Below, piece by piece: positions 27,001 to 30,000 of a stretch of DNA of 39,821 nt. The position numbers are program-made. The stretch's first letter is position 1; each line of letters opens with the position of its first letter. The stretch is from a virus (lineage: Duplodnaviria; Heunggongvirae; Uroviricota; Caudoviricetes). The stretch is taken from the IMG/VR virus record IMGVR_UViG_3300045988_152494, positions 1 through 39,821 of that record; one strand, written 5' to 3'.

Positions 27001-30000
27001 TGACTTAGACAGACTTGAAGAAAGTGTTAAACAAGGAAAAAATTTAGTTGTTGCTCTAGGCGATAAAAAGTATGTATTCACACAAGTTAAAGAAATAAAT
27101 TATCTTGAAGACTACTTATTTAATAAAAATGAAATATCTAATAAATTAGCCATAGATTTCATATTAGGTTCAGTAAACTCATTACAACTTCCATTTTCAA
27201 AAACTATAACCTCATGTAATTTGAAAGAGTTAAGTTTGCCAGCTAAATATGTGTTAAAACTAAATCAACGCATTGAACGCCACGGAAAACTAGACGACTT
27301 GCTCAATAAAATCACCTTAGATAAAATCAATGCAAATAAAATTTACACCAACATCAAAGATATAAAGGATGCAAAGTTCAAAAAGTACAAAGAATTGTCT
27401 ATAGTCATTAAGAACATAAAAAATATCCCCAAAGAGGAGATTGAAGATTATGTTAAAAAAGAAGCGTTTGTTCAATTCAAGGCATGCGACGTTGACAATT
27501 TAAAAACCCAGTATAGGAAACTATTTCTTGCCTACGACTTGTTGATTCATGGAAATGTTGAAAAGATAAATTAAATAAACGCCCCGTACAAAGCGATGGC
27601 GGGGCTAATAAGTCATTTATGTATCATTTAGCAACTGACTAAAAAAATACACATAAGAACTCAGACTACCAATATTCGATTAAATTTGCTGCCAACCTAC
27701 CGAGCTCACCACAACCCGATGCCCCTCTGTCACGAGGCACATTAAAGCTGTACAAATTTCAGCCACACCAATAAGTCTTCATACTCTTTTTTATAAAAAT
27801 TCATTTAATTATCAATCAGAACAAGTATATCAAACATTATCAATACTAATCGCTATTGACTACACCAATAGCTATTGCTATTGTCATGCTATTGCATCGA
27901 TGTTGGTATCACAAAATTTATAACTTCACCGTTGCGATGACCGCTTAGATCCGCAGCTTGAATTTCAGCAGGCTCCGGGGAGTGCGAGGGGTGAAGCGGA
28001 CGCGTGAACGTCGGTGTGACCAGCTGAAATCAACTCAACACTTCATACCTCAGTCGCTTCAACGAGGCGACTTAGTTATGACAACCGGCGGCCATCCACC
28101 GCCTGAATACGCGCAGAAGTCTCTATATGTTCAGCAGCCCAGCTTACGGGCAGGAGTTTTTATGGTTCATCAACATTACGGAACGCAGACCGTTAATCGA
28201 GGTGCGGTCATGCCAGGAATGCTGGTCAAACACAAAGATGGTACCTGGACTGCATCAGCTAATTTACGCGGACGGCTATATCTGCATCGCGGCATCGAGC
28301 GCACTTATACCCGTGATTTGCTCGTGGAAGTTTTTCTCGACGGACGCGGTAACGGCCTGAATCACTAATCCCCTTTCCTGTTTTCCTAATCAGCCTGGCA
28401 TTTCGCGGGCGATATTTTCACAGCCATTTTCAGGAGTTCAGCCATGAACGCTTATTACATTCAGGATCGTCTTGAGGCTCAGAGCTGGGCGCGTCACTAC
28501 CAGCAGATCGCCCGTGAAGAGAAAGAGGCAGAACTGGCAGACGACATGGAAAAAGGCCTGCCCCAGCACCTGTTTGAATCGCTATGCATCGATCATTTGC
28601 AACGCCACGGGGCCAGCAAAAAAGCCATTACCCGTGCGTTTGATGACGATGTTGAGTTTCAGGAGCGCATGGCAGAACACATCCGGTACATGGTTGAAAC
28701 CATTGCTCACCACCAGGTTGATATTGATTCAGAGGTATAAAACGGATGAGTACAGCACTCGCAACGCTGGCTGGGAAGCTGGCTGAACGTGTCGGCATGG
28801 ATTCTGTCGACCCACAGGAACTGATCACCACTCTTCGCCAGACGGCATTTAAAGGTGATGCCAGCGATGCGCAGTTCATCGCATTGCTGATCGTCGCCAA
28901 CCAGTACGGCCTTAATCCGTGGACGAAAGAAATTTACGCCTTCCCTGATAAGCAGAACGGCATCGTTCCGGTGGTGGGCGTTGATGGCTGGTCCCGCATC
29001 ATCAATGAAAACCAGCAGTTTGATGGCATGGACTTTGAGCAGGACAATGAATCCTGTACATGCCGGATTTACCGCAAGGACCGTAATCATCCGATCTGCG
29101 TTACCGAATGGATGGATGAATGCCGCCGCGAACCATTCAAAACCCGCGAAGGCAGAGAAATCACGGGGCCGTGGCAGTCGCATCCCAAACGGATGTTACG
29201 GCATAAAGCCATGATTCAGTGTGCCCGTCTGGCCTTCGGATTTGCTGGTATCTATGACAAGGATGAAGCCGAGCGCATTGTCGAAAATACCGCATACACT
29301 GCAGAACGTCAGCCGGAACGCGACATCACTCCGGTTAACGATGAAACCATGCAGGAGATTAACACTCTGCTGATCGCCCTGGATAAAACATGGGATGACG
29401 ACTTATTGCCGCTCTGTTCCCAGATATTTCGCCGCGACATTCGCGCATCGTCAGAACTGACACAGGCCGAAGCAGTGAAAGCTCTTGGATTCCTGAAACA
29501 GAAAGCCACTGAGCAGAAGGTGGCAGCATGACACCGGACATTATCCTGCAGCGTACCGGGATCGACGTGAGAGCTGTCGAACAGGGGGATGATGCATGGC
29601 ACAAATTACGGCTCGGCGTCATCACCGCTTCAGAAGTTCACAACGTGATAGCAAAGCCCCGCTCAGGAAAGAAGTGGCCTGACATGAAAATGTCCTACTT
29701 CCACACCCTGCTGGCTGAGGTTTGCACCGGTGTGGCTCCGGAAGTTAATGCTAAGGCGCTGGCCTGGGGAAAACAGTACGAGAACGACGCCAGAACTCTG
29801 TTTGAATTCACTTCCGGCGTGAATGTTACTGAATCCCCGATCATCTATCGCGACGAAAGTATGCGCACCGCCTGCTCTCCCGATGGTTTATGCAGTGACG
29901 GCAACGGCCTTGAACTGAAATGCCCGTTTACCTCCCGGGATTTCATGAAGTTCCGGCTCGGTGGTTTCGAGGCCATAAAGTCGGCTTACATGGCCCAGGT

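Follow-up and report, generated by a model that had tools for sequence, protein, structure and literature searches.

A lambdoid prophage kil gene behind a long, probably untranslated leader, in an early-left operon without a recognisable N antiterminator

The early-left promoter and the genes that follow it

The window analysed here is a 39,821 nt stretch of viral DNA that contains a prophage adjoining icd, related to 4A7 and other phages of the genus Bievrevirus. Its immunity region is of the type with a YdaS-like cro and a YdaT-like 'cII', and a CI-type repressor gene lies at 25132..25860. The early-left promoter and operator (OL/PL, 27840..27886, + strand) consist of a sigma-70-like promoter, TTGACT-17-TATTGT, found by a promoter scan at 27856..27884 (−35 TTGACT at 27856, with the last base of the −10 TATTGT at 27884), which lies within operator repeats of the form CAATAGCTATTG and its variants. 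The palindrome itself is present at 27866..27877, inside the PL region, operator-type sites related to it number seven against 1.5 expected from shuffles, and the operator at PL shares inverted repeats of 23-34 nt (I1 and I4) with the cro/cI intergenic region at 25052..25121. The operator-like region noted earlier upstream of the ORF discussed below is therefore a real one. The first ~35 nt of the transcript predicted to start at PL (27890..27924, + strand) are specific to the immunity type; identity to the 79 other distinct variants of this region is ~0.45 through 27924 and 0.99 from 27925-27928, and the same leader is found behind at least three immunity types.

Between PL and gam (28444..28740; PF06064, E 3e-65), which is followed by bet and exo, there is one long ORF (27958..28368, + strand, 136 codons from a TTG), as a first inspection of the sequence had suggested. 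The other ORFs of at least 30 aa in this interval are three minor ones, of 30 aa over the promoter, of 77 aa in an alternative frame inside kil and of 42 aa on the antisense strand. The upstream part of the long ORF reads VRGVKRTRERRCDQ, and from the GTG at 27982 it reads ...RGVRGVKRTRERRCDQ...; the Arg-rich motif KRTRERR that had been reported in a GTG-initiated upstream extension is present within it.

A kil gene at the 3′ end of the long ORF

The last 68 codons of the long ORF constitute kil (28162..28368, + strand), which encodes a 68-aa KilR-type cell-division (FtsZ) inhibitor recognized by phrog_294, NF008465 and RefSeq, and the sequence has a Shine-Dalgarno AGGAG (28152..28156, + strand) 5 nt 5′ of its ATG. 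Residues 1-68 match phrog_294 (E 1.3e-37) and also positions 1-70 of the 73 in NF008465, 'FtsZ inhibitor protein' (E 1.8e-17), so that a profile of this ~70-aa class of proteins is matched across its full length; the NF008465 score is 63 bits, under the curated cut-off of 92, and Kil is accordingly a family relative rather than an equivalog of the Rac protein. Its identity with Rac KilR is 36 % (E 9e-13), its N-terminus MV(H/N)QHYG is common to HK225 Kil, and the coordinates of the 68-aa gene are those of the RefSeq protein WP_000233576.1, 'phage encoded cell division inhibitor protein'. Its position in the early-left operon, 5′ of the recombination genes, agrees with that of kil genes generally, the same order being found in 4A7, HK225, HK639, phi80 and KO-TP1. 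By homology, this Kil would be expected to inhibit FtsZ and cell division, an effect of expression that has been shown for Rac KilR only (PMC5793797; PMC12482147).

The kil-gam spacer (28369..28443, + strand) contains the gam ribosome-binding site. In megablast many Stx and lambda-like phages matched the segment 28362..28443 at 98.8 % identity, under their 'Kil protein' feature. Since lambda-type and Stx phages share this spacer and have a different kil, there is a mosaic joint at ~28362.

Counted along the long ORF, the alignments to both phrog_294 and NF008465 begin at residue 69. The annotation of the whole ORF as Kil, found in some GenBank records, is probably a mis-start.

The leader upstream of kil

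The segment 27925..28043 (+ strand) is a conserved leader that appears to be untranslated. We compared 80 distinct natural variants drawn from 121 loci, collected with a 25-nt search pattern that forced identity at 27990..28014. Frame-breaking indels (+1, +5, +37, −2 and +1 nt) or in-frame stops occur between the Arg motif and kil in 14 of the 80, the long frame staying open into kil in 65, and kil itself has no indels and no in-frame stops in any of them. Substitutions at the three codon positions number 14/10/16 in the leader versus 11/14/38 in kil, so the third-position bias evident in kil is absent upstream of it. The indels and stops together with this lack of bias argue that the leader is non-coding, with the qualification that no homologue of 27925..28043 falls below ~94 % identity, which makes coding and RNA-structure constraints on this segment only weakly testable; more distant homologues (60-85 % identity) were not found in the phage collection. 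Of 5426 complete E. coli genomes, 2206 (41 %) contain the leader, and among the ~59 full-length RefSeq E. coli matches listed it carries no annotated feature.

The composition of the leader accounts for the Arg-rich motif. A G-rich tract at 27965..28014 has CGN and GGN triplets that read RGVRGVKRTRERR in the kil frame, and a G-free, C-rich tract (28027..28052) lies 3′ of it; because the stretch encoding KRTRERR has 15-17 G per 30 nt, it yields Arg and Gly codons. KRTRERR is thus a G-rich stretch of leader read in the kil frame and not part of a conserved protein. By our own estimate (~4 % stop codons per codon at the local G+C) an open extension of 68 codons would arise by chance in ~7 % of cases, which is within chance expectation, and judged by its sequence this upstream part is a 5′ leader open in the kil frame by happenstance. 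The Arg-rich ORF is, in short, an ordinary prophage kil behind a long untranslated leader. The fold of 27925..28045 is no more stable than that of shuffled sequences (z +0.51), on which ground we rejected a structured RNA in this part; for the whole leader z is −1.03.

Searches for N, nut and put

The earlier statement that no convincing boxA or boxB is present holds. Neither early leader has a boxA with one mismatch or fewer, and there was no boxB in the form of a 5-7-bp hairpin with a purine-rich pentaloop. The gap between cro and the cII-like gene is 24 nt, which leaves no room for nutR. The ORF outside the Arg-rich motif had been described as unlike the conserved C-terminus of N, and comparison by BLASTP with the N proteins of lambda and phi80 and with HK022 Nun gave nothing significant. 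The extension had no Pfam family at E≤1, 27991..28161 had no match in PHROGs, and tblastn at E≤10 against 50,697 phage records returned only the same locus. A phmmer search with the extension against 1.84 billion representative proteins gave 17 matches; the eight examined included gene calls on deleted or frameshifted copies of the same locus, besides a related variant of the leader and an unrelated repeat protein, with no N protein among them. N proteins are too diverse for profile libraries (phi80 N is labelled 'unknown function' by PHROGs) and negative profile results are weak by themselves. The leader codons CGT GAA CGT CGG resemble CGC GAA CGT CGC of lambda N, but a remnant of an N gene was rejected as this resemblance had no further support, and neither blastn in 'distant' mode nor tblastn found an N gene related to the leader segment. 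Elsewhere in the early operons, where PHROGs scans recognized Kil, Gam, NinB, RusA, HNH, Q-like and DksA-like proteins besides unknowns, no other ORF is Arg-rich at its N terminus, a weak negative given that phi80 N is itself unlabelled.

A put-type RNA was also sought, both by alignment and with a covariance model built from HK022 putL, HK022 putR and HK639 putL. None of the invariant put motifs is present in the leader, and the best score of the model in the window was 9.1 bits (E 0.5), at unrelated positions in neither early leader, against 60-94 bits for the positive controls; a put element was thereby rejected. Rfam gave chance-level matches only, for the whole window at gathering thresholds and for 27800..28460 at E≤10, and apart from the operators the PL and PR leaders share no inverted repeat better than chance. 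We found nothing relevant in the literature on antitermination in Bievrevirus or 4A7. The suggestion that N and its nut site were lost or replaced is thus supported as a description, as N, nut and put were not found in the PL-kil interval, and relatives hold N and a terminator (phi80) or putL and genes (HK639) in that place. This is a very common E. coli prophage lineage that has no N antiterminator at the PL-kil position.

A two-hairpin element and its occurrence in other lambdoid phages

The 3′ part of the leader contains a two-hairpin RNA element (28044..28103) whose structure, as predicted from sequence, is supported by covariation. Hairpin 1 (28044..28080, + strand) has an inner 9-bp stem at 28052..28072 with the loop AAC and an invariant outer pairing, CAUA/UAUG, that includes the ATG at 28078; it appears in the minimum free energy fold, and among 34 distinct lambdoid phage sequences six of its stem pairs are preserved through two-sided changes. 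Hairpin 2 (GGCGG-CCATCCA-CCGCC, 28087..28103, + strand) is nearly invariant in sequence and is kept in phi80, HK225, HK639 and phages of Klebsiella, Enterobacter and Salmonella. In HK639 it is an annotated terminator followed by a T run, which is absent here.

The ATG at 28078 would begin a conserved polyproline leader peptide, MTTGGHPPP. This candidate was rejected, as variants with 1-2-nt indels after the ATG read MRRRPSTA or MTPAAIHRP and keep the nucleotides of hairpin 2, and also since the ATG is paired in hairpin 1. The preservation of hairpin 2 in spite of such frame-shifting indels indicates that the constraint is on nucleotides and not on a peptide.

In phi80 the order is PL, nutL, N, tL1A and then CATACC and the hairpins; the series CATACC-hairpin 1-TTATGA-hairpin 2 lies, as here, upstream of delayed-early genes that include kil, with 28 nt identical between the two and the stem of hairpin 1 kept by compensatory changes. 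The difference is that directly 5′ of the element phi80 has nutL (boxA and core), a gene for an N of 98 aa and tL1A, an intrinsic terminator, and in place of this N module the window has ~155 nt of unrelated leader between PL and the hairpins. In HK225 and KO-TP1 the hairpins follow small genes and a terminator, and HK639 has PL, putL, two genes, a terminator and then hairpin 2. HK022 and HK639 are N-less lambdoid phages like this one, and HK639 shares both hairpin 2 and a downstream Kil of the same family; these phages have put RNA, however, whereas neither early leader of the window resembles put in sequence or in structure.

A close resemblance is to the Bievrevirus phages 4A7 and 4C10, the PhiR phages and icd-adjacent E. 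coli prophages, which are 97-99 % identical from 27925 through kil-gam-bet-exo and have the same layout (cI, accessory genes, PL, leader, kil) with no annotated N. The 4A7/4C10 group differs in its immunity region and accessory genes and in the ~35 nt with which the leader begins; a hypothetical gene and an ASCH-domain gene of 4A7 have their place taken by a SIR2 gene in the window. The Rac kilR gene, besides encoding the homologous small FtsZ inhibitor, is likewise early-left, 3′ of a repressor-controlled region, 5′ of recombination genes and behind a long non-coding leader, and Rac shares the type of immunity region and the lack of an annotated N. The Rac leader, unlike the two-hairpin element with no T-run terminator found here, holds the sRNA KilS ending at an intrinsic terminator, and it has no DNA similarity to the leader in the window. 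Rac kilR has its own regulatory 5′ UTR (PMC8175672) and is held off by NusG/Rho termination (PMC5793797).

Interpretation of the region

We consider this region, with a probability of roughly 0.8, to be the 5′ untranslated leader and first PL-operon gene, kil, of an N-less lambdoid prophage. The CI-type repressor would control PL, and on its removal RNA polymerase would transcribe ~275 nt of leader without a canonical intrinsic terminator, pass the two-hairpin element and continue into kil, gam, bet and exo, expression of which would then need no dedicated antiterminator. A scan for terminator-like sites between PL and kil found none. By analogy with Rac kilR, the long leader with its G-free, C-rich tract and hairpins may limit expression of the toxic Kil, for example through Rho and NusG; we infer both the PL start and the involvement of Rho, silencing by Rho/NusG having been shown for Rac (PMC5793797).

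Further downstream there are strong intrinsic terminators on the + strand at 31357..31384, before a dksA-like gene, xis and int, and on the − strand at 21718..21690, before the nin genes and Q. The first of these arrived with an inserted block of genes that is absent from 4A7. The presence of such terminators in both early operons would make more sense given some antitermination mechanism. We put forward tentatively, as an unlikely proposal, that the PL leader, notably 28044..28103, is a regulatory RNA, not yet characterised, that acts in cis in early-left operons of lambdoid phages. It could attenuate transcription in a Rho-dependent way or counteract such attenuation, serve as a site of processing, or signal antitermination through RNA.

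The more specific proposal that the conserved RNA at 27925..28103 (or, in the commonest immunity types, the entire ~155-nt leader with the two hairpins) is a new element acting in cis, modifying RNA polymerase or antagonising Rho in place of N/nut as HK022 put does, seems to us improbable. In its favour are the beginning of the conserved leader near the PL start and its sharing among immunity types, its retention in so many E. coli genomes, the covariation of hairpin 1 and invariance of hairpin 2, and the strong terminators in both early operons of a phage that lacks N; RNA-based antitermination is, moreover, suspected in other N-less lambdoids (PMC12315714). There is no similarity to put, though, the part of the leader up to 28045 folds no better than shuffles, the PR operon would be equally in need and has no matching element, and the left-operon terminator came with the block missing from 4A7. 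In relatives, furthermore, the two-hairpin element sits downstream of N or put and a terminator, and so coexists with known antiterminators and does not replace them.

A longer Kil isoform, beginning either at the ATG at 28078 (96 aa) or at the GTG at 27991 (~126 aa), is less probable again. That ATG is in the kil frame in most variants with GAGG 10 nt upstream, long forms are annotated in several GenBank phage records and protein-cluster entries, and the PHROGs profile reaches ~9-12 residues 5′ of M69. Against this, hairpin 1 holds both the ATG and its GAGG in paired form, the same ATG in phi80, HK225, HK639 and KO-TP1 opens a 14-28-codon frame that varies and is unconnected to kil, natural variants have −2, +37 and +1 nt indels between 28078 and 28162, and the KilR model begins at M69.

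Hardly credible at all is the divergent N-like antiterminator with a non-ATG start (GTG 27982 or 27991, alone or fused to Kil) offered as one option by the sequence-only reading, its Arg-rich motif binding an RNA hairpin in the leader: KRTRERR does resemble TRRRERR of lambda N, GGAG lies 9 nt 5′ of GTG 27991, the frame is mostly open into kil and the motif comes early in the PL transcript, close to its 5′ end, the usual place of an N gene, but beyond these seven residues there is no similarity to Nun or to the N of lambda or phi80, the extension has no homologue beyond calls at the same locus, its frame is disrupted in natural variants and without codon-position bias, boxA, boxB and a position for nutR in the right operon are all wanting, the G-rich tract alone yields the Arg and Gly codons, no RefSeq call covers it in any match listed, and the conserved part of the ORF belongs to an unrelated family, Kil.

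The untranslated leader and kil that we prefer here are of limited novelty, as kil is routinely annotated and N-less lambdoid phages (HK022, HK639, LLS and Rac) are already on record. Nevertheless, the lineage with this kil leader, in ~41 % of complete E. coli genomes, has an early-left operon without recognisable N, nut or put, and many lambdoid phages of enterobacteria have, just ahead of their delayed-early genes, a small covarying RNA element that is not in Rfam. If the tentative regulatory role of the leader RNA were true, it would partly replace, in this N-less lineage, the N/nut control of lambda.

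Locus organization and identity of the ORF

The window is oriented so that its + strand runs in lambda's leftward direction, and the prophage adjoins icd, with near-identical copies present in E. coli chromosomes; the nearest isolated relatives are the Bievrevirus 4A7, 4C10 and PhiR phages. A cro-like gene (25063..24830, −) and a CI-type repressor gene (25132..25860, +; HTH plus S24 peptidase) are accompanied by a SIR2-domain gene (25967..27574, +; 535 aa; PF13289, phrog_2695), which takes a rexAB-like position, with the repressor gene on one side and the early-left promoter PL on the other, and is probably a defence gene; in 4A7 other genes are found in this position. 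Operators and a promoter occupy the non-coding interval that follows, and beyond it come the long ORF (27958..28368, +) and the recombination genes gam (28444..28740, +), bet and exo. The sequence-only reading was right to see a single ORF from the operators to gam, there being no other substantial one, and its operator-like region is a sound assignment: the promoter TTGACT-17-TATTGT (27856..27884) is surrounded by CAATAGCTATTG-type repeats that are enriched relative to shuffled sequences and include 23-34-nt inverted repeats shared with the cro/cI intergenic region.

The 3′ half of the long ORF is kil. The ORF is assigned to phrog_294 ('Kil protein for bacterial septation inhibition', E 1e-38, PHROGs), its residues 69-136 align with positions 1-70 of the 73 in NF008465 (NCBIfam; KilR, FtsZ inhibitor), and the RefSeq CDS is exactly 28162..28368, a 68 aa 'phage encoded cell division inhibitor protein', with AGGAG located 5 nt 5′ of ATG 28162. 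The start MV(H/N)QHYG is common to HK225 Kil, and Rac KilR is 36 % identical to the window's Kil (E 9e-13). The ORF therefore belongs to a family unrelated to N, and the suggestion that it encodes a divergent N-like factor is not supported. A match at 98.8 % identity to Stx and lambda-like phages, whose own kil is of the unrelated lambda type, covers 28362..28443, from the final nucleotides of kil through the kil-gam spacer, and marks a mosaic joint at the kil stop codon.

The upstream extension

Translation of the long ORF from GTG 27982 gives VRGVKRTRERRCDQ, which includes the Arg-rich KRTRERR motif. We gathered 121 loci containing the segment (4A7 and strain A35 along with contigs from IMG/VR), representing 80 distinct sequences across 27790..28460. 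Between 27925 and 28161 they show indels of +1 (after 27987), +5 (after 28030), +37 (after 28112), −2 (28115-28116) and +1 (after 28156), some variants have in-frame stops, and the Arg motif is cut off from kil in 14 of the 80 sequences; kil itself has no indels in any of them. Variable sites at codon positions 1/2/3 number 14/10/16 in the leader as against 11/14/38 in kil. Arginine and glycine codons are inevitable in the motif tract, since it holds 15-17 Gs per 30 nt. Because the loci were fetched with a 25-nt pattern that forces identity at 27990..28014, and all relatives are at least ~94 % identical, these variants are decisive for the reading frame as a whole with the exception of its first dozen codons.

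Database searches with the extension gave no matches in Pfam at E≤1 and none in PHROGs for 27991..28161, and tblastn against 50,697 phage records (E≤10) found the same locus only. phmmer against 1.84 billion representative proteins gave 17 matches; the eight examined include gene calls from deleted or frameshifted copies of the locus, one related variant of the leader and a single repeat protein that is unrelated, and none is an N protein. BLASTP showed no significant similarity to lambda N, phi80 N or HK022 Nun.

Absence of nut and put sites

Scans of the early leaders agree with the earlier failure to find a convincing boxA or boxB: no boxA is present at ≤1 mismatch in either leader, and no boxB-like hairpin was found. 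The gap between cro and the cII-like gene is only 24 nt, leaving no room for nutR. The hairpin GCCGCCTAAACTGCGGC (24839..24821, −) straddles the cro stop codon; it is similar to GCCGCCTAACCAGCGGC, the hairpin of the tL1A terminator in phi80, KO-TP1 and S9-5, but lacks a T run. A put covariance model built on HK022 putL, HK022 putR and HK639 putL, which scores its controls at 60-94 bits, did not exceed 9 bits anywhere in the window, and its hits lay outside the leaders; Rfam gave no match.

Strong intrinsic terminators with 7-9-bp stems followed by T runs are present in both early operons, at 31357..31384 (+) on the left, 5′ of a dksA-like gene, xis and int, and at 21718..21690 (−) on the right, after a secreted-protein gene and before the nin genes and a Q-like antiterminator (18759..18070, −). 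The left terminator arrived with an inserted block, absent from 4A7 and strain A35, that also holds a queuine tRNA-ribosyltransferase-like gene (30360..31112, +; phrog_887, E 4e-99) and a phrog_303 ORF. As the phage is N-less, both terminators are expected to be polar, and their presence leaves some room for an unrecognised antitermination mechanism, to which we give a low probability. A perfect palindrome, TGACGCA-TT-TGCGTCA (21598..21583, −), in the 300-nt non-coding stretch 3′ of the right-operon terminator may be a regulator binding site.

Comparative anatomy of the leader

Homology to the Bievrevirus group starts sharply at 27925, about 35-40 nt past the inferred PL start, and the leader is common to at least three immunity types, the two commonest sharing it almost from the transcription start. 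In these two (e.g. loci L026 and L078) it opens with (A/C)TCGCAACAACACAACGATACGGCAA, the first 7-9 nt of which are able to pair with GTTGCGA(TG) at 27931..27939; the window's type has a 5-bp version, CAUCG/CGAUG (compared over 27890..27939). The tract between the arms is C-rich and G-poor, and the pairing may constitute a 5′ stem.

A two-hairpin element (28044..28103) is more widely kept, in phi80, HK225, HK639 and phages of Klebsiella, Enterobacter and Salmonella; among our comparison loci it lies at ~2973..3030 in L003 and ~3003..3062 in L008, and it is present in L128, L129, L130 and L131-L249. In many enterobacterial lambdoid phages it stands at the head of the delayed-early genes on the left; it is absent from Rfam. 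Six stem pairs of hairpin 1 stay paired through two-sided changes (34 distinct sequences; 7-15 sequences per pair), and its outer pairing CAUA/UAUG, which includes ATG 28078, is invariant. Hairpin 2, GGCGGCCATCCACCGCC, is nearly invariant and is kept even where indels shift its frame relative to ATG 28078. This excludes MTTGGHPPP as a conserved leader peptide and is indicative of constraint at the RNA or DNA level. In the window the element is not a canonical terminator, since the T run is absent.

In these relatives the element is preceded by an intrinsic terminator closing an upstream module, directly so in those bearing N or put. In phi80 this module consists of nutL, N and tL1A; HK639 has putL and two genes, and in HK225, KO-TP1 and S9-5 it is made up of small genes without an assigned function. 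The window, by contrast, has a joint at ...CAACACTT|CATACC, with ~155 nt of unrelated leader in place of the terminator stem and everything 5′ of it. This supports the other proposal of the sequence-only reading, that N and nut were lost or replaced, as a description of the locus, though not as to the direction of the change.

Expression of kil and distribution of the leader

Once the repressor is lost, PL transcription would pass the leader, where scans find no terminator-like site, and would enter kil-gam-bet-exo with no dedicated antiterminator involved. Expression of the toxic Kil is plausibly held down by this long untranslated leader together with the hairpins and a C-rich tract free of G (28027..28052). 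Rac kilR is kept off by NusG/Rho-dependent termination (PMC5793797) and has a regulatory 5′ UTR that gives the sRNA KilS (PMC8175672); the Rac and window leaders are unrelated in sequence, and the restraint on Kil is thus suggested by analogy.

Of 5426 complete genomes of E. coli, 2206 carry the 237-nt leader (27925..28161) at 80 % coverage or more, O157:H7 and O104:H4 strains included, with no annotated feature under it among the ~59 full-length matches listed; the full arrangement with the window's immunity type occurs in 166 genomes. Since the leader is widespread and N-less lambdoid phages are already recognised (PMC12315714; PMC9378689), the finding is an ordinary one, in which a known gene with an over-extended ORF call sits in an architecture of a familiar kind.
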